DNA of 64,000 nucleotides, from assembly GCF_046105845.1 (NCBI RefSeq), contig NZ_CP151004.1. One strand, 5' to 3'. Positions 1 through 19,329 of the stretch are shown one piece after another. Within the stretch, counting starts at the first letter, position 1. Every line of letters starts with the position of its first letter. This DNA comes from Escherichia coli (lineage in GTDB: Bacteria; Pseudomonadota; Gammaproteobacteria; Enterobacterales; Enterobacteriaceae). The position numbers and the translations under genes are program-made. The notes under the pieces are model-generated. The model was not told the origin of the DNA, ran no database searches, and worked only from the letters and a program-made list of their open reading frames with translations.

Positions 1-2
1 CA

Positions 3-1079
3 TTGCCAACCGTTGAAAACCAGTTTACGCCGACCACGGCGTGGAGTACTTCCGTTGGTAGCGGCATTGGCAACTTCTATTCCAATCTTCATCCGGCACT
101 GGCGGACAACGTTGTCTATGCAGCGGACCGCGCTGGTTTAGTAAAAGCGCTGAATGCGGATGATGGCAAAGAAATCTGGTCTGTCAGCCTGGCCGAGAAA
201 GATGGCTGGTTCTCTAAAGAGCCTGCATTACTTTCTGGCGGCGTGACCGTGTCTGGCGGGCATGTCTACATTGGCAGTGAAAAGGCGCAGGTTTACGCGC
301 TGAATACCAGCGATGGTACTGTGGCATGGCAAACTAAAGTCGCGGGTGAAGCACTTTCGCGTCCGGTGGTCAGCGACGGTCTGGTGTTAATCCACACCAG
401 TAACGGTCAGTTACAAGCGCTGAACGAAGCTGACGGCGCTGTCAAATGGACAGTTAACCTCGATATGCCTTCGCTCTCTTTGCGTGGCGAGTCTGCGCCA
501 GCAACGGCTTTTGGTGCGGCTGTCGTGGGTGGCGATAATGGTCGCGTCAGCGCAGTGCTGATGGAACAGGGCCAGATGATTTGGCAGCAGCGTATTTCCC
601 AGGCGACCGGTTCTACCGAAATTGACCGTCTGAGCGATGTTGACACGACTCCCGTCGTTGTTAACGGCGTTGTTTTCGCGCTGGCCTATAATGGTAACCT
701 GACGGCGCTTGATCTGCGCAGTGGTCAGATTATGTGGAAACGCGAACTGGGTTCGGTGAATGATTTCATCGTCGACGGCAATCGCATCTATCTGGTCGAT
801 CAAAATGACCGGGTGATGGCGTTGACCATTGATGGCGGCGTTACGCTGTGGACACAAAGCGATCTGTTGCATCGCCTGCTGACTTCTCCGGTGCTGTATA
901 ATGGCAACCTGGTGGTAGGTGACAGTGAAGGTTATCTGCACTGGATTAACGTCGAAGATGGTCGTTTCGTTGCCCAGCAAAAAGTTGATAGTTCCGGTTT
1001 CCAGACTGAACCGGTTGCCGCTGACGGCAAACTGCTGATCCAGGCAAAAGACGGAACCGTGTACTCTATTACACGTTAA
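3..1079 (+). CDS. bamB: Outer membrane protein assembly factor BamB (5' end truncated by window edge)
   Basis: ORF running off window start; beta-propeller PQQ-like repeats; matches E. coli BamB C-terminal portion; synteny with der. Confidence 0.93.
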   Translation: MPTVENQFTPTTAWSTSVGSGIGNFYSNLHPALADNVVYAADRAGLVKALNADDGKEIWSVSLAEKDGWFSKEPALLSGGVTVSGGHVYIGSEKAQVYALNTSDGTVAWQTKVAGEALSRPVVSDGLVLIHTSNGQLQALNEADGAVKWTVNLDMPSLSLRGESAPATAFGAAVVGGDNGRVSAVLMEQGQMIWQQRISQATGSTEIDRLSDVDTTPVVVNGVVFALAYNGNLTALDLRSGQIMWKRELGSVNDFIVDGNRIYLVDQNDRVMALTIDGGVTLWTQSDLLHRLLTSPVLYNGNLVVGDSEGYLHWINVEDGRFVAQQKVDSSGFQTEPVAADGKLLIQAKDGTVYSITR

Positions 1080-1102
1080 TCGTCTCTGTCGTTCACTTTG
1101 AA

Positions 1103-1136
1103 AACGGCTCCTGGACAGGGGCCGTTTTCCTGTTTT
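1103..1136 (+). terminator. Imperfect hairpin followed by T-rich tract downstream of bamB
   Basis: aacggctcctg / caggggccgtt stem then ttcctgttttt. Confidence 0.4.
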
Positions 1137-1196
1137 TAACAACGACACGAATATAGCGTGCGTTGTCTGATGATTTATAAAAATGAGGCTTTAAAC

Positions 1197-2669
1197 ATGG
1201 TACCTGTGGTCGCGCTTGTCGGGCGCCCTAACGTAGGAAAATCCACGTTATTTAACCGTCTAACTCGCACCCGAGATGCGCTGGTTGCGGATTTCCCGGG
1301 TCTGACTCGTGACCGTAAGTACGGTCGTGCAGAAATTGAAGGCCGTGAGTTTATCTGCATTGATACCGGCGGGATTGATGGTACAGAAGACGGTGTAGAA
1401 ACCCGTATGGCGGAACAGTCGCTGCTGGCGATTGAAGAAGCGGACGTCGTACTGTTTATGGTGGATGCGCGCGCGGGCCTGATGCCGGCGGATGAAGCGA
1501 TTGCCAAACATCTGCGCTCCCGTGAAAAACCGACCTTCCTGGTGGCAAACAAAACTGACGGTCTGGATCCCGATCAGGCAGTGGTTGATTTCTACTCGCT
1601 TGGTTTAGGTGAAATCTACCCGATCGCCGCGTCTCACGGTCGTGGCGTATTAAGTCTGCTGGAGCACGTGCTGCTGCCGTGGATGGAAGATCTCGCACCG
1701 CAAGAAGAAGTCGACGAAGACGCTGAATACTGGGCGCAATTTGAAGCGGAAGAGAACGGCGAAGAAGAAGAGGAAGACGACTTCGACCCGCAAAGTCTGC
1801 CAATCAAACTGGCGATTGTGGGTCGTCCGAACGTAGGTAAGTCTACACTCACTAACCGTATTCTTGGTGAAGAGCGCGTTGTTGTTTACGACATGCCTGG
1901 CACTACGCGTGACAGTATCTACATTCCAATGGAACGCGACGGACGTGAGTATGTGCTCATTGACACCGCTGGCGTACGTAAACGCGGCAAAATCACCGAT
2001 GCTGTAGAGAAGTTCTCGGTAATCAAAACGTTGCAGGCCATTGAAGATGCCAACGTGGTGATGTTGGTGATTGATGCGCGCGAAGGTATTTCCGATCAGG
2101 ATCTCTCCCTGCTGGGCTTTATTCTCAATAGTGGGCGCTCACTTGTCATTGTAGTGAATAAGTGGGATGGCCTGAGCCAGGAAGTGAAAGAGCAGGTGAA
2201 AGAAACGCTGGACTTCCGTCTGGGCTTTATCGATTTTGCTCGTGTGCACTTTATCTCAGCCTTGCACGGCAGTGGTGTTGGTAATCTGTTTGAATCAGTA
2301 CGTGAAGCGTATGACAGCTCCACCCGTCGTGTGGGGACCTCTATGCTGACGCGCATCATGACGATGGCTGTTGAAGATCACCAGCCGCCGCTGGTACGTG
2401 GTCGTCGTGTGAAGCTGAAATATGCCCACGCTGGTGGTTATAACCCGCCGATTGTGGTGATTCACGGTAACCAGGTGAAAGACCTGCCTGATTCCTACAA
2501 GCGTTACTTGATGAACTACTTCCGCAAATCGCTGGACGTAATGGGATCGCCGATTCGTATTCAGTTCAAAGAAGGGGAAAACCCGTATGCGAACAAGCGT
2601 AACACCCTGACGCCAACCCAGATGCGTAAACGTAAGCGTCTGATGAAGCACATCAAGAAAAATAAATAA
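1197..2669 (+). CDS. der: Ribosome-associated GTPase Der/EngA (tandem GTPase domains)
   Basis: Two G1 motifs GRPNVGKST; start MVPVVALVG at ATG 1197; 490 aa. Confidence 0.95.
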
Positions 2670-2690
2670 TTATCCGTAAGTATTTTATCT

Positions 2691-2722
2691 GCCATTCCCT
2701 CTATGAATGTAGAGGGAATGGC
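2691..2722. other. 13-bp perfect inverted repeat (gccattccctcta N6 tagagggaatggc) between der and yfgJ
   Basis: Read directly; no adjacent U-tract. Confidence 0.5.
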
Positions 2723-2738
2723 TACCGGAGGAATTCAT

Positions 2739-4351
<1,613 letters not shown>

Positions 4352-4482: not shown

Positions 4483-5949
4483 ATGCTACGTATCGCTAAA
4501 GAAGCTCTGACGTTTGACGACGTTCTCCTCGTTCCTGCTCATTCTACCGTTCTGCCGAATACTGCTGACCTCAGCACCCAGCTGACGAAAACTATTCGTC
4601 TGAATATCCCTATGCTTTCCGCAGCAATGGATACCGTAACGGAAGCGCGCCTGGCTATTGCTCTGGCTCAGGAAGGCGGTATCGGCTTTATCCACAAAAA
4701 TATGTCCATTGAACGCCAGGCGGAAGAAGTTCGCCGTGTGAAAAAACACGAATCTGGCGTGGTGACTGACCCGCAGACTGTTCTGCCAACCACGACGCTG
4801 CGCGAAGTGAAAGAACTGACCGAGCGTAACGGCTTTGCGGGCTACCCGGTCGTTACCGAAGAAAACGAACTGGTGGGTATTATCACCGGTCGTGACGTAC
4901 GTTTTGTTACCGACCTGAGCCAGCCGGTTAGCGTTTACATGACGCCGAAAGAACGTCTGGTCACCGTGCGTGAAGGTGAAGCCCGTGAAGTTGTGCTGGC
5001 AAAAATGCACGAAAAACGCGTTGAAAAAGCGCTGGTGGTTGATGACGAATTCCACCTGATCGGTATGATCACCGTGAAAGACTTCCAGAAAGCGGAACGT
5101 AAACCGAACGCCTGTAAAGACGAGCAAGGCCGTCTGCGTGTTGGTGCAGCGGTTGGTGCTGGCGCTGGTAACGAAGAGCGTGTCGACGCGCTTGTTGCTG
5201 CAGGCGTTGACGTTCTGCTGATCGACTCCTCTCACGGTCACTCTGAAGGCGTTCTGCAGCGTATCCGTGAAACTCGTGCTAAATATCCGGATCTGCAAAT
5301 CATCGGCGGCAACGTGGCAACAGCTGCGGGGGCACGCGCTCTGGCAGAAGCTGGTTGCAGCGCGGTTAAAGTCGGTATCGGCCCTGGCTCTATCTGTACG
5401 ACTCGTATCGTGACTGGCGTAGGTGTTCCGCAGATCACCGCCGTTGCTGATGCAGTAGAAGCCCTGGAAGGCACCGGTATTCCGGTTATCGCTGACGGTG
5501 GTATCCGTTTCTCAGGCGATATCGCCAAAGCTATCGCCGCAGGCGCAAGCGCGGTGATGGTGGGTTCCATGCTGGCAGGTACTGAAGAATCTCCGGGTGA
5601 AATCGAACTCTACCAGGGCCGTTCTTACAAATCTTACCGTGGGATGGGCTCTCTGGGTGCGATGTCCAAAGGTTCTTCTGACCGTTACTTCCAGAGCGAC
5701 AACGCTGCCGACAAACTGGTTCCGGAAGGTATCGAAGGTCGCGTGGCCTATAAAGGTCGCCTGAAAGAGATCATTCACCAGCAGATGGGCGGCCTGCGCT
5801 CCTGTATGGGCCTGACCGGCTGTGGTACTATCGACGAACTGCGTACTAAAGCGGAGTTTGTACGTATCAGCGGTGCGGGCATTCAGGAAAGCCACGTTCA
5901 CGACGTGACCATTACTAAAGAGTCCCCGAACTACCGTCTGGGCTCCTGA
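4483..5949 (+). CDS. guaB: IMP dehydrogenase GuaB
   Basis: 488 aa from [21 protein letters not shown]; CBS domains, catalytic Cys loop [11 protein letters not shown]. Confidence 0.96.
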
Positions 5950-5955
5950 TTCTCT

Positions 5956-5978
5956 TCGCCCGACTTCATGTCGGGCGA
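5956..5978 (+). other. Intercistronic hairpin between guaB and guaA (tcgcccgac ttcat gtcgggcga)
   Basis: 9-bp perfect stem read directly, followed by tttatatt. Confidence 0.45.
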
Positions 5979-6017
5979 TTTATATTATCTGTTTCACTTG
6001 CCTCGGAATAAGCGTCA

Positions 6018-7595
6018 ATGACGGAAAACATTCATAAGCATCGCATCCTCATTCTGGACTTCGGTTCTCAGTACACTCAACTGGTTGCGCGCCGCGTGCG
6101 TGAACTGGGTGTTTACTGCGAACTGTGGGCGTGGGATGTGACAGAAGCACAAATTCGTGACTTCAACCCAAGCGGCATTATTCTTTCCGGCGGCCCGGAA
6201 AGCACCACCGAAGAAAACAGCCCGCGTGCGCCGCAGTATGTTTTTGAAGCAGGCGTACCGGTATTCGGCGTTTGCTATGGCATGCAGACCATGGCAATGC
6301 AGTTGGGCGGTCACGTTGAAGCCTCTAACGAACGTGAATTTGGCTACGCGCAGGTTGAAGTCGTAAACGACAGCGCACTGGTTCGCGGTATTGAAGATGC
6401 TCTGACCGCAGACGGTAAACCTCTGCTCGATGTCTGGATGAGCCACGGCGATAAAGTTACCGCTATCCCGTCCGACTTCGTCACCGTAGCCAGCACCGAA
6501 AGCTGCCCGTTTGCCATTATGGCTAACGAAGAAAAACGCTTCTATGGCGTACAGTTCCACCCGGAAGTGACTCACACCCGTCAGGGTATGCGCATGCTGG
6601 AGCGTTTTGTGCGTGATATCTGCCAGTGTGAAGCCCTGTGGACGCCAGCGAAAATTATCGACGATGCTGTAGCTCGCATCCGCGAGCAGGTAGGCGACGA
6701 TAAAGTCATCCTCGGCCTCTCTGGTGGTGTGGATTCCTCCGTAACCGCAATGCTGCTGCACCGCGCTATCGGTAAAAACCTGACTTGCGTATTCGTCGAC
6801 AACGGCCTGCTGCGTCTCAACGAAGCAGAGCAGGTTCTGGATATGTTTGGCGATCACTTTGGTCTGAACATTGTTCACGTTCCGGCAGAAGATCGCTTCC
6901 TGTCAGCGTTGGCCGGCGAAAACGATCCGGAAGCAAAACGTAAAATCATCGGGCGCGTTTTCGTTGAAGTATTCGATGAAGAAGCACTGAAACTGGAAGA
7001 CGTGAAGTGGCTGGCGCAGGGCACTATCTACCCTGACGTTATTGAATCTGCCGCATCTGCAACCGGTAAAGCACACGTCATCAAATCTCACCACAACGTG
7101 GGCGGCCTGCCGAAAGAGATGAAGATGGGCCTGGTTGAACCGCTGAAAGAGCTGTTCAAAGACGAAGTGCGTAAGATTGGTCTGGAGCTGGGCCTGCCGT
7201 ACGACATGCTGTACCGTCACCCGTTCCCGGGACCAGGCCTCGGCGTTCGTGTACTGGGCGAAGTGAAGAAAGAGTACTGCGACCTGCTGCGCCGTGCTGA
7301 CGCCATCTTCATTGAAGAACTGCGTAAAGCGGACCTGTACGACAAAGTCAGCCAGGCGTTCACCGTCTTCCTGCCGGTACGTTCCGTTGGTGTAATGGGC
7401 GATGGTCGTAAGTATGACTGGGTTGTTTCTCTGCGTGCTGTCGAAACCATCGACTTTATGACCGCACACTGGGCGCATCTGCCGTACGATTTCCTCGGTC
7501 GCGTTTCCAACCGCATTATCAATGAAGTGAACGGTATTTCCCGCGTGGTGTATGACATCAGCGGCAAGCCGCCAGCTACCATTGAGTGGGAGTGA
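6018..7595 (+). CDS. guaA: GMP synthase (glutamine-hydrolysing) GuaA
   Basis: 525 aa; GATase domain then SGGVDSS PP-loop ATPase motif. Confidence 0.97.
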
Positions 7596-7634
7596 GGCTA
7601 TTATTTAAACTATTGTTTTATTTGATTTAGTGAG

Positions 7635-7675
7635 TGCCATTGATGATATTGACTGCATTATCAATGGCATTTTTC
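7635..7675 (+). terminator. Rho-independent terminator of guaA
   Basis: tgccattgat N15 atcaatggca 10-bp stem followed by ttttt. Confidence 0.7.
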
Positions 7676-7928
7676 ATGGTATAAGGCCGACGCTGAATCG
7701 AAGATATAGCAAATACCATGTGACCCTATCAGCAAATGCCATGGTATCGACAACCGGGGGCATTGCAGCGCTGTGCTGATGCCATCGATGCCCGCTTTTG
7801 GTCAGAACCGCTCTCTCGACCCAAGCCTCCAGATCGTTAAATATGCGCCAGAGGAGCACCTCGTGATCGAAATTGTGAACAAGACAGCCGCCGCTCGGAA
7901 TCGAAGTATCCATATGGGTGAATAAAGT

Positions 7929-7957
7929 TTGCGGAAAACACGCTGAGAAAATAGAAA
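7929..7957 (+). promoter_or_regulatory. Weak candidate sigma-70 promoter for the DUF262 gene pair (TTGCGG N17 TAGAAA)
   Basis: Hexamers with 17-bp spacer about 25 bp upstream of ATG 7981; RBS aaggga at 7968-7973. Confidence 0.25.
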
Positions 7958-7980
7958 AGCGTCAATGAAGGGACATAGCA

Positions 7981-9261
7981 ATGGCGATTAACGGAGAGGA
8001 CGGTGTTAGTGCAGTCACCGTGGATGAACTACTCAAGCAAGGCCTTCGGATACCGAACTATCAACGCCCATACAGTTGGGAAGTATCGACCGCTCTACAA
8101 CTGGTGGATGATCTTAGCGAAGCTCTTCGAGATACCGAAAGAAAAGATATTCCCTATGTTTTGGGTGCAATCATTCTTCACGATGATGGTGAGTATCTCA
8201 ATGTAGTCGACGGACAGCAACGTCTGCTGACTTTGCGAATGATTCTTGCGGCCTTAGATCCGATAAATCATCAGATTTCGGTGTCTGGTAACAGCGAAAC
8301 TCCTGTCTCCCTGGTTTGGATAGAGCTTCAAAGGCGCCTGTCGCAGTTGGAAGATAAAAAAGAATTTTTGGATTTTATCTGTCACAAATGTCAGTTGGTG
8401 CGTATTGTGACGGACGATATTGATGAGGCATTTCGTGTCTTTGATTCCCAGAACTATCGCGGCAAACCGCTTGCCCCTCATGACTTGCTCAAAGCACACC
8501 ACCTCCGCGAAATGCACGATGAGTCCGCTGCTATGAAAGTGGCTGTCGTTGAGGCTTGGGAAGCCGTAAATGATGAGGATCTGGACAGGCTTTTTTCTAC
8601 TTTTTTATACCGGATATCCAAGTGGTCACGAGGCGAAAGCTCGCTCGAATTTGCTATTCGGGACATCGGGATGTTTAAGGGAATTTCATCACGATCCCAC
8701 AGATCATTTTCGCCAAATCTGCGATATCACCTTGCAGCACAAGCCGCTATGCCACTTCTAAGTGCATGGGCGGTGTCCTCTACACATGATGCACGAAATG
8801 CCGGGCGCAGCCGCTTTCAGCTTGATGCCCCGATAATCGCTGGGCGCTCATTTTTCGAGATGGTGACATTCATGCTTGACGAATTGAAGATACTGGAAAA
8901 AGAGGTTATCGACAGAGGTTTCAAAAACTTTGGCCCATCTCAAAGTCGCTACCGCTACGTGTACGAATTGTTCATTGCCGCGCTGCTTTGCTATACAAAC
9001 AAGTTTGGCGATGAAGATGTGGATGAAGTGCGAAATAGATTATTCGCATGGGCATATGCCTTGCGGGTCGAGTTACTTCGTGTGCAATTTGTATCTGCTG
9101 ACAACCGAGCTCGAGGTAAAAACGATGCAAATAAATCGCCTTTTGTTTTGCTACGCAACGCGATGACTGGAAGTGTTGTCCGCAAACTTCCAATAGCAAG
9201 TCAGCCATACAACGATAACCACGAAAAGGAACTCGTTGCTTTTATCAAGGGGCTGCAATGA
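7981..9261 (+). CDS. DUF262 (ParB/Srx-like, DGQQR motif) protein, 426 aa, no recognisable nuclease domain
   Basis: Motifs IPNYQRPYSW, VDGQQRLLTL (8209-8223), FRVFDSQNYRGKPLAPHDLLK; stop overlaps next start (ATGA). Confidence 0.88.
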   Translation: MAINGEDGVSAVTVDELLKQGLRIPNYQRPYSWEVSTALQLVDDLSEALRDTERKDIPYVLGAIILHDDGEYLNVVDGQQRLLTLRMILAALDPINHQISVSGNSETPVSLVWIELQRRLSQLEDKKEFLDFICHKCQLVRIVTDDIDEAFRVFDSQNYRGKPLAPHDLLKAHHLREMHDESAAMKVAVVEAWEAVNDEDLDRLFSTFLYRISKWSRGESSLEFAIRDIGMFKGISSRSHRSFSPNLRYHLAAQAAMPLLSAWAVSSTHDARNAGRSRFQLDAPIIAGRSFFEMVTFMLDELKILEKEVIDRGFKNFGPSQSRYRYVYELFIAALLCYTNKFGDEDVDEVRNRLFAWAYALRVELLRVQFVSADNRARGKNDANKSPFVLLRNAMTGSVVRKLPIASQPYNDNHEKELVAFIKGLQ

Positions 9262-11210
9262 GCAAGAAGGAGTTGAGACCCGAACTGATAACAGTAGGCA
9301 AGCTATTCACGGGCTATTATCTGATTCCTATTTATCAACGGAACTATGCTTGGCGGGCCGAACAGATTGAGCAACTTATCAGCGATATTCAAGGCTCGGT
9401 GGTTGGGGGCCAGGACGACTATTTTCTTGGGAACCTTGTTGTAATCAAGCGGGGTAGAGAGGACGAGTTCGAGGTCATAGATGGACAACAACGACTTACA
9501 ACCCTCTATCTGCTTCTGACCTTCCTGGAGCAAGACGGTGAGGGTGGGAAGCTGTCGATTGGCCATGCAGGCCACTTGCAATATGAGTCGCGCGCACGGG
9601 CAACGGAAGCCCTGCGGCGAGTAGCACAGGAGGCGGCTAAGGGGCACGTCCGACCGCAGGGCTCCACGAGTAATGCAGATGCTGGCATCCATGAAGGCTA
9701 CAGCATCATCAATCAGTTCTTCAAACAAAATGAAACCCTTAATCGCTCACGCGAAAAATTCTCCGATTTCTTGCTAAAGAAGGTTACTGTCGTCCGTGCC
9801 TCGCTGCCACCCAATACCGACCTCAATCGCTACTTCGAGATCATGAACACTCGTGGGCAGCAACTCAAGCAGGTTGATATTGTTAAGGCTCGCCTGATGA
9901 GCAAGCTGCCCAATCAATATGAACGCGAATGCTTCGCGTGGGTTTGGGATGCCTGTGCTGACATGGATTCTTATGTCCAGATGTCTCTGACCCGTGGTGA
10001 CACCAGTTTACGAAACAAAGTATTTGGCGATGAATGGTCCTGGCTGGAGGTGACCAGCTTCGCGTCGCTAATGGAAAGTCGTCCGCAATCCGACATCAGT
10101 TCATTAAGGCAATCCTCCGAAGGGGTATCGTTGTCCTTGGATGAGGCGTTGTCAAAATACGCTAAAGAGATCGAGTCAAATTCCACTGAAGACGAGGGCA
10201 ACGAGCGGTTTCGTTCGACTATTGAGTTTCCGGCCTTTCTGCTACACGTTCTAAGAATTATGAAAGGCGATGAGGTCGAAGACGAAGGCCAGCTTGACGA
10301 CAAGCGCCTCATCAAGTCATTTGACGACGCCGTAAATAATGTACCCGATGCTAAAGCCGATTGGGTGCGTAGCTTTGCATTTATGCTTCTTAAGTGCCGT
10401 AACCTCTTCGATGGCTTCATCTTGAAGCGTCAATTCACGGCGAACATCGGTGACGATGGCGATTGGTCTCTCCAGCGATTGAAGAAAGGCGGTGCGGACA
10501 AGAAGCCAGCCCCGACGTACATCCATGTTTTCTCGGCCAGCAATGGAAACTTGGAGGAGGACAGCGGTGCTGACCCACATACCCGAGATGTATTGTTGCT
10601 TCAGTCCATGCTTCGGATTACCTACACTTCTCCGCGAACGATGCACTGGATTACCAAAGTTCTTCGCTGGCTATCCGTTAAAGCCCCTCAAGACGCGAAA
10701 CATGCGGATCTTGCCGATTTGTTGAAGGGGTATGCCCGCAGCAAGGTTAAAGAGACATTCCCCTTTGAGGAAGATCAGCAACCACAAGGGTTTGGTATCA
10801 GCCGTATCGTCTTTTCATACCTCGACTATCTTCTGTTGAGTGATTCCTCAAAACGAGATTTCAAATTTCAGTTCAGAACTTCCATTGAGCACTTTTATCC
10901 ACAGCATCCGGACAAAGAACAGTCGGGCGCGGCTGTTTCAGGTTCTAGCCTTAACCTGCTTGGCAACCTCGCGCTCGTAAGCGTCAGCGCGAACTCAAAA
11001 TTCAGCAATAGCCTTCCCAGAGCGAAGGCCGAAAACTTCAAGGATACGATTGAACTTCAAAGTCCCAAGCTCAAGAGAATGGCGGAAATCGCTCGAAATA
11101 CAAGCTGGGACGATCAGCAGATAACAGCACATCATGAAGAGATGGTGACATTGCTTCGTGATGATGTAAGTCTGGTGGAGGCAAGCGGAAGATCCTACCC
11201 GGGGCGTTGA
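9258..11210 (+). CDS. GmrSD-like protein: N-terminal DUF262 plus C-terminal DUF1524 His-Me-finger nuclease motif, 650 aa
   Basis: IPIYQRNYAW, IDGQQRLTTL (9480-9494), YFEIMNTRGQQLKQVD; C-terminal SIEHFYPQHP (10887-10904) and GNLALVSVSANSKFSN. Confidence 0.88.
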   Translation: MSKKELRPELITVGKLFTGYYLIPIYQRNYAWRAEQIEQLISDIQGSVVGGQDDYFLGNLVVIKRGREDEFEVIDGQQRLTTLYLLLTFLEQDGEGGKLSIGHAGHLQYESRARATEALRRVAQEAAKGHVRPQGSTSNADAGIHEGYSIINQFFKQNETLNRSREKFSDFLLKKVTVVRASLPPNTDLNRYFEIMNTRGQQLKQVDIVKARLMSKLPNQYERECFAWVWDACADMDSYVQMSLTRGDTSLRNKVFGDEWSWLEVTSFASLMESRPQSDISSLRQSSEGVSLSLDEALSKYAKEIESNSTEDEGNERFRSTIEFPAFLLHVLRIMKGDEVEDEGQLDDKRLIKSFDDAVNNVPDAKADWVRSFAFMLLKCRNLFDGFILKRQFTANIGDDGDWSLQRLKKGGADKKPAPTYIHVFSASNGNLEEDSGADPHTRDVLLLQSMLRITYTSPRTMHWITKVLRWLSVKAPQDAKHADLADLLKGYARSKVKETFPFEEDQQPQGFGISRIVFSYLDYLLLSDSSKRDFKFQFRTSIEHFYPQHPDKEQSGAAVSGSSLNLLGNLALVSVSANSKFSNSLPRAKAENFKDTIELQSPKLKRMAEIARNTSWDDQQITAHHEEMVTLLRDDVSLVEASGRSYPGR

Positions 11211-11443
11211 CTTCTTTGAATAACCGCTTTTGGACGAAAGTCCCTTGTGGAGTGCAAGTTGTCAGTCTAAAAGCGTTTTGCGTCAGGCGACACGATCAGT
11301 ACAGCTCCCAGGTTTTCTTACCATGGTATTTTGTGTGGTATCGACATGCAAATATAATGCTATTCTATTGATTTTACAGTGTTTTAAGGCGGCATTAATC
11401 ATCGAGTGGGAATGATTTGACCCTGCACTATGAATGAACAAAA

Positions 11444-11469
11444 CCCTCTGTTACTACAGAGGGTTTTTT
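11444..11469 (+). terminator. Rho-independent terminator between the convergent DUF262 operon and yfgI
   Basis: ccctctg ttacta cagaggg followed by tttttt; A-run on the other side makes it partly bidirectional. Confidence 0.65.
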
Positions 11470-11507
11470 ATCTTCAAGAATTATAGGCTTGAAGTTACTT
11501 ACATCGA

Positions 11508-12047
11508 TTAATTAAACCAGCTGTCCGATTTGTTCTCTTCTGCTTTGCCCACGCTTTTCATCAGATCGCGACCGCCTTCAGTCATATTTCTGTTTGCGTC
11601 AGCTTCAGATTGCACCACATCGGTTTGCGCAGCTTTGTGCTTCAGTTCCTGATCGATAAATTCGTTTTCTCGCTTAACGCGGGCTTCTTCTTTCGCCAGC
11701 GCCAGTTTTTGTTTCTGAATCTCTAAGCTGCGTAGCTCATCTTCATAACTTTGATCGCGTTTTTTGTCCGCAGTGGCTTCGGCATCCAGTTTATCCTGAC
11801 GAGCTTTCTTATTTGCCGCTGCCGTTGCCGCTCTTTTGTTAGCGGCGGCCTGGGCGTTTGCGCGACGTTGCTTCTCTTGCTGGATTTCCCTGTTGCGCTC
11901 CGCGACCCATTCGTCATGCTGCCTTTGCTCTTCATTTTTACCTTGCTGTTCCGCTTCTGCGACAGCAGAGAGTTGATCCTGCAATGATGAGGCGATAGCC
12001 GGATAGCTTAAGGAGGCTAAGATGGCGCAAAGAAAAACTTTCTTCAT
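11508..12047 (-). CDS. yfgI: Periplasmic coiled-coil protein YfgI
   Basis: 179 aa, signal peptide MKKVFLCAILASLSYPAIA, charged repeats; K-12 synteny. Confidence 0.88.
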   Translation of the reverse strand: MKKVFLCAILASLSYPAIASSLQDQLSAVAEAEQQGKNEEQRQHDEWVAERNREIQQEKQRRANAQAAANKRAATAAANKKARQDKLDAEATADKKRDQSYEDELRSLEIQKQKLALAKEEARVKRENEFIDQELKHKAAQTDVVQSEADANRNMTEGGRDLMKSVGKAEENKSDSWFN

Positions 12048-12062
12048 GACTCCTCCTGATTA

Positions 12063-12581
12063 TTAGCTCTTTTCAGGACATTTGGTATTTGGCTGAATAC
12101 GCGTTTCGTTATACGTCGTGGTAATAACAACGGCTAAACCTGTCGTAAACTGGCACTCTTTACCCACCTGGGTGGAGGTATACACTTTGGTGCCTTCCTT
12201 ATACGTTAGAGAAACACCTTCTACTAAGGTTTTATCATTCACCATAGAACCCGCTGCCGCGCCAACAGCTCCGCCGCCAACTGCACCTGCAGTCGTTCCG
12301 GAATTGCTGCCAGACCCCACGTTGTGGCCGATTACACCGCCAGCGACTGCACCAATAAGCGCGCCGAAGGCTTGTGCGTTTCGTTTATTTTGGGAGTTGT
12401 CTACGACAACTTTTGCGGGAAGAATGGAAATAATATTAACGGTTTTAGTTTCTTGTTTGGTATTCAGTTGATCGGTTTGATAAACATCGGCGGCATGATC
12501 ATCAGCATTTGACTGGCATCCTGCCAGAGTGAATGACGCTAACATTGCCAAAGGCAGAAGACATTTTTTAAATTTCATCAC
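12063..12581 (-). CDS. yfgH: Outer membrane lipoprotein YfgH (glycine-zipper)
   Basis: 172 aa, lipobox LAGC, Gly-rich GxxxG tract. Confidence 0.88.
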   Translation of the reverse strand: MMKFKKCLLPLAMLASFTLAGCQSNADDHAADVYQTDQLNTKQETKTVNIISILPAKVVVDNSQNKRNAQAFGALIGAVAGGVIGHNVGSGSNSGTTAGAVGGGAVGAAAGSMVNDKTLVEGVSLTYKEGTKVYTSTQVGKECQFTTGLAVVITTTYNETRIQPNTKCPEKS

Positions 12582-12891
12582 TATTCCTTGTTATACACAT
12601 TACGAAAAATAAGATATTTAAGATCATCAAAAGAGGAAAGTAAATGTATTGCGTATAAAGGAATAGATTAAATTTATTAAAATTCATGTGGAAAATAATT
12701 TATAAAAATACATCATTAAAACATATGTATTAATTTTATATTTATTTCGCAGCCAAACAGGATAAACATCAGTCAGGACAAAGACGTAAAATTTAAGATG
12801 AAAGAATATCTGCCGCTTTGATAATCCCAAAGAGCAAAAGCATCCGACAGCGAGGTGCCGTTATGTTCTGTGAAAGTGGAGAAGGTAACCG

Positions 12892-13083
12892 CTAACGTTG
12901 TACCGGTGATTCGACGGAGAGTGTGGATTGCTGAGCTTCTTTTTTGCTCTGATGGTGCTGCCATGCACCGACGGACGAGTAGATAAAACGGCCAAAGAAG
13001 AAGATAAAGCTGATGAGCAGTACGATACGGGTCATGCGACTGTTAAATCGGTGTCGTTTTCGCATACTGGTTGCCTGACTCAC
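12892..13083 (-). CDS. yfgG: Small membrane protein YfgG (63 aa)
   Basis: 63 aa ORF with one hydrophobic helix; position matches K-12 yfgG. Confidence 0.65.
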   Translation of the reverse strand: MSQATSMRKRHRFNSRMTRIVLLISFIFFFGRFIYSSVGAWQHHQSKKEAQQSTLSVESPVQR

Positions 13084-13293
13084 AAAAGGTTCCTTGAAGT
13101 ATGTCCCACGCTGTGGACGGTACTTACATTAAGGCACAACAGGACAAAATGGTCAATTCTTCGTTATGTAAAAAAGCGTCAGTGGATACATATTTTAATG
13201 TTATGGAAGTTAATTTAATTATTTACAATGATGATGTAATAATGATGAATTAACATGATAAACGTAATAATTCATTAATCAGGGTTATTTTGT

Positions 13294-13307
13294 TTGATAT
13301 ATATCAA
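13294..13307. promoter_or_regulatory. Consensus FNR box TTGAT-N4-ATCAA upstream of pdeF
   Basis: Perfect TTGATatatATCAA about 128 bp upstream of pdeF ATG in AT-rich region. Confidence 0.5.
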
Positions 13308-13434
13308 TTGGAACTTTCATATGACACTTAGAATCAATGCTCTCTATAGTGATGAATAATCATCATTCGAAGTCAGGTGGGATGCCTGTCTGAATACACC
13401 TCCTTCAGGATGTGGGGGATTCTGCTGAGCATCT

Positions 13435-15678
13435 ATGAAACTGAATGCAACTTATATAAAAATACGTGATAAATGGTGGGGGCTTCCGCTGTTCCTGCCT
13501 TCTTTAATCTTGCCCATTTTCGCCCACATTAATACTTTCGCGCATATTTCTTCCGGTGAGGTTTTTCTCTTTTATCTGCCTCTGGCTCTGATGATCAGCA
13601 TGATGATGTTTTTCAGCTGGGCGGCATTGCCAGGGATCGCCTTAGGGATTTTTGTCCGCAAATATGCAGAGCTGGGTTTTTACGAAACGCTCTCATTAAC
13701 GGCTAATTTTATTATCATTATCATTCTCTGTTGGGGCGGTTACAGGGTCTTTACTCCCCGGCGTAACAACGTTTCACATGGTGATACCCGTTTAATTTCC
13801 CAGCGTATATTCTGGCAGATTGTGTTTCCTGCAACGCTGTTTCTGATACTTTTCCAGTTTGCTGCGTTTGTAGGATTACTGGCGAGCAGAGAAAATCTGG
13901 TCGGCGTCATGCCTTTTAACCTCGGGACCTTAATCAATTATCAGGCCTTACTGGTGGGCAATCTGATTGGTGTCCCGCTGTGCTACTTCATCATTCGGGT
14001 GGTGCGAAATCCGTTTTATTTACGTAGCTATTATTCGCAATTAAAACAGCAGGTTGATGTCAAAGTCACCAAAAAAGAGTTCGCGCTCTGGCTACTGGCA
14101 TTAGGTGCGTTGTTGTTGCTGTTATGCATGCCGTTAAATGAAAAAAGCACAATTTTTAGCACCAATTATACCCTGTCATTATTGCTGCCCCTGATGATGT
14201 GGGGAGCGATGCGCTATGGTTATAAGCTGATTTCGCTGCTCTGGGCGGTCGTGTTGATGATCAGCATCCACAGCTATCAAAATTACATTCCCATTTATCC
14301 TGGCTATACCACACAGCTGACCATAACCTCCTCCAGTTATCTGGTATTCTCTTTTATTGTCAATTATATGGCTGTACTGGCAACCCGTCAGAGAGCGGTA
14401 GTCAGACGCATTCAGCGGCTTGCGTATGTGGACCCGGTGGTTCATCTGCCAAATGTTCGCGCCCTGAATCGCGCGTTGCGTGATGCCCCCTGGTCTGCGC
14501 TTTGTTATTTACGCATCCCTGGCATGGAAATGCTGGTTAAGAACTATGGCATCATGCTGCGGATTCAATACAAGCAAAAACTTTCTCACTGGCTGTCACC
14601 CTTGCTGGAACCGGGTGAGGATGTTTATCAGCTTTCGGGTAACGATCTCGCGCTGCGACTGAATACAGAATCGCACCAGGAGCGCATTACCGAACTGGAT
14701 AGCCATCTCAAGCAATTTCGTTTCTTTTGGGATGGAATGCCGATGCAACCGCAGATTGGCGTCAGTTACTGCTATGTGCGCTCGCCAGTGAATCATATCT
14801 ACCTGTTGCTGGGAGAGCTAAATACGGTCGCCGAGCTTTCCATCGTGACCAACGCCCCGGAAAATATGCAGCGTCGCGGGGCAATGTATTTGCAACGCGA
14901 ATTGAAAGATAAAGTCGCGATGATGAATCGGCTACAGCAGGCGCTGGAACACAACCATTTTTTCCTGATGGCCCAGCCGATTACCGGTATGCGTGGCGAT
15001 GTCTACCATGAAATTCTTCTGCGCATGAAAGGTGAGAATGATGAACTGATCAGCCCCGACAGCTTCTTGCCGGTCGCGCACGAATTTGGTTTATCGTCGA
15101 GTATCGACATGTGGGTCATTGAGCATACGCTGCAATTTATGGCTGAAAACAGAGCGAAGATGCCCGCTCACCGTTTTGCGATTAATCTGTCGCCAACCTC
15201 GGTATGTCAGGCTCGTTTTCCCGTTGAAGTCAGTCAGCTGCTGGCTAAATATCAAATTGAAGCGTGGCAACTTATTTTTGAAGTCACCGAAAGTAATGCT
15301 CTGACAAATGTTAAGCAGGCGCAAATCACCTTGCAGCATCTTCAGGAATTAGGCTGCCAGATTGCGATTGATGATTTCGGCACCGGCTACGCCAGCTATG
15401 CGCGGCTTAAAAATGTGAATGCCGATTTGCTTAAAATTGACGGCAGTTTTATCCGCAATATTGTGTCAAATAGTCTGGATTATCAGATAGTGGCGTCGAT
15501 TTGCCACCTGGCGCGAATGAAGAAAATGCGGGTAGTGGCAGAGTACGTTGAAAACGAAGAGATCCGCGAGGCGGTGCTCTCTTTGGGGATCGATTATATG
15601 CAGGGTTATCTTATTGGTAAGCCGCAACCGTTAATTGATACGCTGAATGAAATCGAACCCATTCGCGAAAGTGCCTGA
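13435..15678 (+). CDS. pdeF: c-di-GMP phosphodiesterase PdeF (YfgF); MASE1-GGDEF(degenerate)-EAL
   Basis: 747 aa; N-terminal multi-TM domain, C-terminal EAL motifs. Confidence 0.93.
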   Translation: MKLNATYIKIRDKWWGLPLFLPSLILPIFAHINTFAHISSGEVFLFYLPLALMISMMMFFSWAALPGIALGIFVRKYAELGFYETLSLTANFIIIIILCWGGYRVFTPRRNNVSHGDTRLISQRIFWQIVFPATLFLILFQFAAFVGLLASRENLVGVMPFNLGTLINYQALLVGNLIGVPLCYFIIRVVRNPFYLRSYYSQLKQQVDVKVTKKEFALWLLALGALLLLLCMPLNEKSTIFSTNYTLSLLLPLMMWGAMRYGYKLISLLWAVVLMISIHSYQNYIPIYPGYTTQLTITSSSYLVFSFIVNYMAVLATRQRAVVRRIQRLAYVDPVVHLPNVRALNRALRDAPWSALCYLRIPGMEMLVKNYGIMLRIQYKQKLSHWLSPLLEPGEDVYQLSGNDLALRLNTESHQERITELDSHLKQFRFFWDGMPMQPQIGVSYCYVRSPVNHIYLLLGELNTVAELSIVTNAPENMQRRGAMYLQRELKDKVAMMNRLQQALEHNHFFLMAQPITGMRGDVYHEILLRMKGENDELISPDSFLPVAHEFGLSSSIDMWVIEHTLQFMAENRAKMPAHRFAINLSPTSVCQARFPVEVSQLLAKYQIEAWQLIFEVTESNALTNVKQAQITLQHLQELGCQIAIDDFGTGYASYARLKNVNADLLKIDGSFIRNIVSNSLDYQIVASICHLARMKKMRVVAEYVENEEIREAVLSLGIDYMQGYLIGKPQPLIDTLNEIEPIRESA

Positions 15679-15683
15679 ATAAT

Positions 15684-15710
15684 GCGGGCCGACATTTCTC
15701 GTCGGCCCGC
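15684..15710. terminator. Bidirectional hairpin between convergent pdeF and ppx
   Basis: gcgggccgac atttctc gtcggcccgc, 10-bp perfect stem within the 38-bp gap between stops; no strong U-tract. Confidence 0.5.
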
Positions 15711-15716
15711 AAAGCA

Positions 15717-19329
<3,613 letters not shown>

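Follow-up and report, generated by a model that had tools for sequence, protein, structure and literature searches.

Genomic islands of the GIsul2 type insert at the 3′ end of guaA at 5′-GAGTGGGA-3′, within 19-bp att sites, and the GIsul2 Int is responsible for excising and integrating the island itself as well as an integrase-less unit, CR2-sul2, which is located between an internal attLR and attR (PMC9376610). A preprint on PIMEs (bioRxiv 10.64898/2026.01.12.698999) treats the guaA island of EcPF16 as one element, with no mention of att-flanked sub-units. Among streptococci, the CIMEs of ICESt1 and ICESt3 (Pavlovic 2004; Bellanger 2011; reviewed in PMC5704250) are flanked by attL and attR, lack recombination and transfer genes and are found at the 3′ end of a housekeeping gene, accreted in tandem with relatives that do encode an integrase. 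The definition of a CIME implies an origin by decay of an ICE or IME (PMC5704250).

The window examined here, a 64-kb stretch of the Escherichia coli chromosome with the order guaB-guaA, insert, yfgI-yfgH, carries a 3.8-kb cassette that can be set beside each of these. The DNA behind its second gene (the tail, 11211-11443) is read, with a probability of about 0.8 and from sequence comparison, as the attR arm and core of an integrase-less, CIME-like cassette at guaA, followed by a sliver of ancestral spacer. The cassette is called CIME-like because it has neither int nor xis and its movement would depend on a GIsul2/PIME Int or on a tandem composite. Like the CIMEs, it retains both attL and attR, has no integration or transfer genes and can share its site, the 3′ end of a housekeeping gene, with a tandemly arranged element that bears an integrase, in which case it lies distal in EcPF16 and CFSAN051542 and proximal in Providencia RB151; it differs from the streptococcal CIMEs in phylum and in integrase family.

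With CR2-sul2 (Zhang et al. 2022, PMC9376610) it shares the want of an integrase, att sites with a GAGTGGGA core at its ends and a place at the yfgI-side end of a guaA-integrated island, and its left core-proximal sequence, GAGTGGGAGTGA..., matches the start of the CR2 terIS/attLR, GGGAGTGAC..., for 12 nt. CR2-sul2 is excised and integrated by the GIsul2 Int supplied by the island (PMC9376610), and the unit in the window may be mobile in a like manner. The unit is unlike CR2-sul2 in its cargo, which is two GmrSD-like genes and not rcr2 and sul2, in having no ISCR element, in its long TGGYAY arms on both sides and in that it often stands alone at guaA. The GIsul2/PIME elements at guaA (PMC9376610; bioRxiv 10.64898/2026.01.12.698999) have the same attB, core, arm motif and spacing, a replacement terminator for guaA and defence cargo, but encode int, alpA, repA/repC and trbJKL with or without traI, none of which the unit in the window has. 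The EcPF16 island of the preprint has this very unit at its right end.

Borders of the insert and the end of guaA

Gene B (9258-11210, + strand, 650 aa) ends in a TGA at 11208-11210, and 229-233 nt separate this stop from the first intrinsic terminator, with no Pfam-recognisable open reading frame between them. The long gap before the terminator, to which the sequence-only reading of this DNA had drawn attention, is real; the terminator stem lies at 11440-11467. When 11100-11560 was used as a query against complete E. coli genomes, 5,416 of 5,426 were matched, most of the query being covered in only 72 of them; in the remaining matching genomes the alignment begins only from about 11400. The empty site of strain 163 has the guaA stop, directly followed by TTTGACCCTGCAC and then by the same terminator as in the window. 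The empty attB reads ACCATTGAGTGGGAATGATTTGACC, the left junction in the window ACCATTGAGTGGGAgtgaggct... and the right junction ...attaatcatcGAGTGGGAATGATTTGACC.

The insert thus defined (7584-11411, counting one copy of the core) is bounded by GAGTGGGA on both sides, with exact copies at 7584 and 11404, precisely where the comparison with empty sites puts its borders. The 8-mer occurs 4 times in the 64 kb against about 2 expected, a frequency that alone means little; what is beyond chance is that both copies mark exactly the limits of the segment that empty sites lack, and also the limits of the same unit where its surroundings are unrelated. The junction repeats mentioned in the sequence-only reading are likewise genuine, as 7566-7595 and 11386-11415 rank first among the direct repeats of the region (30 nt, 73%). 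By the empty-site alignment that it had called for, 11211-11411 belongs to the insert, and ancestral guaA-yfgI DNA within the tail is confined to 11412-11443 (32 nt). Its suggestion of relic sequence holds for those 32 nt, which are DNA from downstream of guaA leading into the native guaA/yfgI terminator; it does not hold for the other approximately 200 of the 233 nt, which are absent from empty sites.

The guaA gene itself (GMP synthase, 525 aa; 6018-7595, + strand) was placed from the list of open reading frames, the RefSeq annotation of identical loci, the empty-site alignment and its translation. Its last bases, from about 7592 (GTGA), are insert-derived, and the new ...GAG TGA keeps the GuaA end IEWE*, so that the location at the 3′ end of guaA and the restoration of the gene end by bases of the element are those of a GIsul2/PIME att site. 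The native stop has been displaced to 11413-11415, inside the ATGAT at 11412-11416, and is now redundant. Beyond it lie the ancestral guaA-yfgI spacer (11417-11439), which differs from the empty site of strain 163 by one mismatch on the yfgI side and is present in about 5,400 E. coli genomes, and the ancestral guaA/yfgI terminator (11440-11473; 12-bp stem and T-run, fold z = -5.0), also present in the empty site. The flanking core gene yfgI (DUF5384) occupies 11508-12047 on the minus strand, as given by its open reading frame and annotation. A literature search for a named guaA-yfgI hotspot found no paper. Upstream of guaA, 5447-5554 on the minus strand has a weak Rfam match to the Pseudomonas sRNA P34 (24.4 bits against a gathering score of 44, E = 0.008); it falls inside the position of the annotated guaB coding sequence of strain A10 and is most likely a chance match.

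At its left end the insert brings a hairpin with a T-run (7632-7675, + strand; an inverted repeat with a 16-bp stem, fold z = -3.2), the arms of which also contain the inverted motifs GTGCCA and TGGCAT. An analogous hairpin and T-run is found at the same place in GIsul2-type islands, and the hairpin may serve as a replacement terminator for guaA. No terminator was found between gene B and 11440, and gene B probably reads through attR to the native guaA terminator. The long gap can be explained without any extra function, because gene B lacks a terminator of its own and presumably ends at the old guaA terminator.

The content of the cassette is limited to two GmrSD-like genes, with no int or xis. 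Gene A (7981-9261, + strand) has GmrSD_N (DUF262) and DUF7834 domains by Pfam, with partial PADLOC matches to the HEC-06, Orf5 and SspE models, and gene B, which overlaps it (9258-11210), has GmrSD_N and GmrSD_C (DUF262 and DUF1524) by Pfam and PADLOC. In its domains, the pair resembles a type IV restriction system. Searches by tblastn with three integrases of the family and by Pfam gave no integrase homologue in the cassette or in the whole 64 kb, and no remnant of int was detected in 7597-7980. In strain A10, whose copy is the closest to that of the window, a C-to-A change (CTACCC to CTAACC; L002 6085-6099, corresponding to window 11196-11198) creates a TAA, and gene B is annotated four codons shorter (646 aa), which indicates that the extreme C-terminus is dispensable or drifting.

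Core sites and arm motifs

Both ends of the insert have a putative core-type site of 19 bp on the plus strand: attL, ACCAT-T-GAGTGGGA-GTGAG, at 7578-7596 (8-bp core 7584-7591), and attR, ATCAT-C-GAGTGGGA-ATGAT, at 11398-11416 (core 11404-11411), of which 11412-11416 is native guaA DNA. The pattern AYMAT-N-GAGTGGGA-RTGAK is common to 13 junctions, the half-sites having been compared in an alignment made for this study, and the core at both borders is identical to the published GIsul2 core (PMC9376610). What the sequence-only reading missed is that the tail is the arm and core of a site-specific recombination site.

Inside these cores, arm-type sites are expected because the integrases of the family, which are 85-89% identical to one another, carry an N-terminal Arm-DNA-bind_3 domain. 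The left arm of the insert (7597-7800) has seven TGGYAY/RTRCCA motifs, at 7634, 7665, 7677, 7713, 7736, 7742 and 7779, and includes a tandem TGGCAT-N6-TGGTAT at 7665. The tail contains a block, TTACCATGGTATTTTGTgTGGTATCGACATGC (11318-11349, + strand), with a tandem TGGTAT-N6-TGGTAT at 11324-11341. A TGGYAY tandem occurs only twice in the 64-kb window, at 7665 and 11324, both in the ends of the cassette; the tandem in the tail has a shuffle P of 0.00045, and the two arms together hold 9 TGGYAY/RTRCCA motifs where 0.75 are expected (Poisson P = 1e-7). Motifs of the same type populate the region from core to int in P377 (L006), EcPF16 (L012) and CFSAN051542 (L013).

When right arms were aligned on the core, the tandem TGGYAY-N6-TGGYAY was seen to lie at -80 in the window and at -79 in the 12-kb GIsul2 backbone of strain P377 (L006), at the right end of the EcPF16 island (L012) and in a remnant of a unit upstream on plasmids, with a half-site only, again at -79, at the right end of the CFSAN051542 island (L013). 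The arms compared are otherwise unrelated in sequence. The block at 11318-11349 is put forward as a set of candidate arm-type integrase-binding sites, the core site alone having been described so far for this integrase family. Among nine copies, the block TTACCATGGTATTTTGTnTGGTATCGACATGC is invariant except for one spacer base. Against the arm reading, the tail as a whole has 13.5% variable columns in the nine copies, compared with about 10% at third codon positions, and is roughly neutral, and the lower variability of the arm block than of the rest of the tail, although in the expected direction and suggestive, is not significant (Fisher P = 0.086).

Between the block and the core lies an A+T-rich spacer (11350-11397; about 69% A+T over 11343-11397, or -61 to -7 from the core). 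A near-consensus IHF site with one mismatch, AATCAATAGAATA, is found on its minus strand at 11361-11373, offset -43, where the right arm of CFSAN051542 matches the IHF consensus perfectly. The other three arms have no IHF consensus within one mismatch at that offset, which makes the site common to 2 of 5 arms; IHF may have a role at attR. The spacer also contains the TATAAT pointed out in the sequence-only reading, as a single copy, although at 11353-11358 and not at 11354-11359. The layout recalls the attR of phage lambda (P arm with arm-type, Xis and IHF sites), in that predicted arm-type sites stand tens of base pairs from the core, the DNA in between is A+T-rich and has a predicted IHF-like bend site, and the integrase has an arm-binding domain at its N-terminus; unlike in lambda, no Xis sites were identified in the window attR, and there is no sequence relationship.

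From left to right, the tail would then begin with roughly 105 nt of insert-borne cassette DNA (11211-11317, + strand), absent from empty sites and always found with the unit, in which no feature was recognised and which probably represents no more than the gene B 3′ UTR. This would be followed by the tandem TGGTAT-N6-TGGTAT, as a putative site for the N-terminal arm-binding domain of the integrase, by the A+T-rich stretch with its IHF-like site, where TATAAT would occur by happenstance, and by the 19-bp core site as the presumed locus of strand exchange. It would end with the displaced guaA stop, the 23-nt ancestral spacer and, lastly, the terminator native to the site. At the other end, the cassette would restore the guaA stop and supply a new hairpin terminator for guaA. 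It would move only with Int (and AlpA) provided in trans by a co-resident GIsul2/PIME island, or inside a tandem composite.

Chromosomal and plasmid contexts of the unit

The unit directly abuts guaA in 52 E. coli genomes, in most of which it stands alone, and has the yfgI-side flank in 72, from about 79 carriers. In EcPF16 and CFSAN051542 it comes last, behind integrase-bearing islands of 15-17 kb that contain int, an HTH/alpA-like gene, repA with or without repC, trbJ/trbL and defence cargo; traI is found in the CFSAN051542 island and a traJ pseudogene in that of EcPF16. The joint between island and unit has an internal core in EcPF16, ...gataATTGAGTGGGAgtgaggctatt (L012 30187), and a degenerate internal core in CFSAN051542, GAGTGGGG (L013 29453). 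The order is reversed in Providencia rettgeri RB151 (L017), in which the unit is guaA-proximal, and a left arm of PIME type (with a hairpin terminator and TGGCAC/TGGTAT motifs) and a truncated int come after its right core. A contig labelled Shewanella indica (L016) has the unit alone in a different guaA, with the flank GAGTGGGAATAA and then a terminator of its own.

Further occurrences of the core and other details of these loci were noted. In the islands of EcPF16 and CFSAN051542, a PIN-domain gene contains GAGTGGGA about 20 nt short of its stop codon (L012 24784 and L013 24377; …gatGAGTGGGAcatgct…), and the cargo beyond it is not the same in the two islands; this copy may be a further internal att-like site or simply conserved coding sequence. 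The guaA of the contig labelled Shewanella indica (NZ_NIJK01000032.1, strain KJW27) shares about 92% identity with its E. coli counterpart along more than 1 kb, which is implausibly close for Shewanella; mislabelling or contamination of the contig, or horizontal acquisition of the region, could account for this.

Searches of PLSDB returned 454-468 plasmids with the unit (464 Klebsiella), and the match is always to bases 1-3827 of the 3828-nt query, that is, from core to core, with the tail always at full length. Homology between plasmids and chromosome ends exactly at the core, the sequence downstream being different. In plasmids that lack the unit, the match begins only at the base following GAGTGGG, where nothing resembling the core is present. 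With a chimeric query made of both flanks, no record was found that spans the two, and no empty plasmid site with GAGTGGG was recovered; the plasmid copy may or may not have arisen by a clean site-specific insertion. Outside the cassette, no DNA homologue of the tail was found in E. coli genomes, plasmids or phages.

Immediately upstream of the cassette, plasmids have the right arm of another att-type unit (L004 6521-7094 and its equivalent in L003), with TGGCAT-N6-TGGCAT at -79 followed by ATAATA-GAGTGGGA. IS1 and IS3 have truncated this unit, which gives the plasmid region the look of a tandem array in decay. Plasmids that lack it have an unrelated 306-bp gene in its place, without core-like sequence (L015 2686-3010).

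Alternative readings of the tail and of the cassette

Several other accounts of the tail were weighed. The simplest, that it is nothing more than the ancestral guaA-yfgI intergenic spacer, had been named in the sequence-only reading as what would dispose of any special role; it fits the last 32 nt and the terminator, and the empty-site alignment already refutes it for the rest, 11211-11403 being found in 79 of 5,426 E. coli genomes, always alongside the DUF262 genes, the two-gene unit with which it travels, and missing from empty sites, so that practically no credence is left to it. A small RNA, or an outward or antisense promoter at TATAAT, in one version giving a transcript of about 105 nt that ends at the native terminator, would have a perfect -10 hexamer, TTGTGT 16 nt upstream as the best -35 and a strong terminator 85 nt downstream. 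The consensus scan nevertheless does not call this hexamer and gives 3 promoter-like sites in the region against 4.9 in shuffles, and the hexamer is GATAAT in 3 of the 9 copies. Structure prediction, which had been proposed as a check, gave unremarkable folds for the cassette-derived portion of the tail, whichever strand was taken (z = -0.8 on the plus and -0.3 on the minus strand for 11211-11403), the z of -3.2 for 11366-11475 being due to the ancestral terminator alone. The search over 5000-16000 gave no Rfam match to the tail at E≤1, its two chance-level hits both lying outside, and divergence is near-neutral; there is also no conserved transcript body, because the plasmid sequence downstream of the core differs. 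With no known RNA family, no remarkable structure, a -10 that is not conserved and a weak -35, the tail is improbable as the seat of an RNA or promoter. It is more improbable still as the remnant of a decayed protein gene, for instance the toxin partner of a plasmid antitoxin, for which a Phd/YefM antitoxin gene about 245 bp after gene B on plasmids and open reading frames of 52-61 aa in the tail might be adduced. The homology of plasmids and chromosome stops at the core, before the antitoxin gene, and a toxin-gene remnant was rejected on that account; moreover, the tail has no DNA homologue outside the cassette in E. coli, plasmids or phages, and Pfam returned nothing for the three open reading frames of the tail (or for a 79-aa minus-strand frame in the left arm). 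The sole protein-like similarity is that of the last 9 codons, which mimic the end of guaA, and the whole tail as a guaA relic was likewise rejected because only these codons resemble the GuaA C-terminus, through mimicry by the core site. No IncP-type oriT nick sequence (ATCCTG) was seen in the tail by eye. The long gap before the terminator is best regarded as the footprint of site-specific integration, not as a hidden gene or RNA.

An account that accepts an origin of the tail as an attR arm holds that the cassette is now an immobile remnant, its int lost by deletion from a larger island, with the tail as a neutral 3′ UTR or junk and with spread only by homologous recombination in the guaA/yfgI flanks or by plasmid inheritance. 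The about neutral divergence of the tail, the lack of an integrase in the window, the degenerate internal core of CFSAN051542 (L013) and the approximately 455 plasmid copies in one context, which fit a single ancestral event, speak for such a fossil. Against it stand the presence of the unit on both sides of int-bearing islands, its occurrence in the guaA sites of at least three species with cores intact and the preservation of the arm block and both 19-bp sites in every copy examined. Repeated site-specific events fit this combination of contexts, species spread and preserved sites better than a single fossil does, and the fossil is regarded as unlikely, if worth keeping in mind. The opposite proposal, held tentatively and at somewhat less than even odds, is that the cassette is still active as a mobile satellite of islands that target guaA, itself devoid of an integrase, and that its attL and attR arms, the TGGTAT tandem of the tail included, are complete so that any integrase of the family could move it in trans. 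The cassette may be mobile today; the copy in the window may be stranded, no helper integrase being present there.

The boundaries of the unit, its cores, the arm motif and spacing that it shares, its several contexts and its lack of an integrase were all established in silico. Were the cassette an active satellite, this would explain its passage among the chromosomes of E. coli, Providencia and others and onto a widespread Klebsiella plasmid lineage, and the tail would define a previously undescribed arm-site code of the integrase family. On the reading of the tail as the attR of a CIME-like cassette, restriction-like genes would travel as a minimal att-flanked unit dependent on the integrases of GIsul2/PIME islands, which as a family also disseminate resistance genes, sul2 among them, and the guaA islands that recent work has taken as single elements may each consist of several separable units in an array. 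This modular view and the arm motif are modest additions and not a new kind of system.

Other arrangements at the guaA site were noted among the loci compared. In EcPF16, an IS66-family element (L009/L012 34136-36448) lies between the native terminator region and yfgI, just to the right of attR, and separates the island from yfgI. E. coli AR_0372 (NZ_CP027134.1, L005 about 1-20015) has a podovirus-like prophage in the same guaA site, with a T7 gp14-family core protein, capsid cement and staple proteins and an SGNH tailspike-like protein, and its end, ...ggttaTGGTATccgtaaataATTGAGTGGGAATGA, has the same core in a different arm layout, with TGGTAT at -18. E. coli P377 (NZ_CM195732.1, L006 7836-20011) carries at guaA a natural 12.2-kb GIsul2 backbone without CR2-sul2, with int, HTH, repA, repC, trbJKL, toxin, ars and resolvase genes, the right end of which joins attB directly. 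This backbone corresponds to the 'GI12K' segment, the excision of which was undetected by Zhang et al., and it supports CR2-sul2 as a separately accreted unit.
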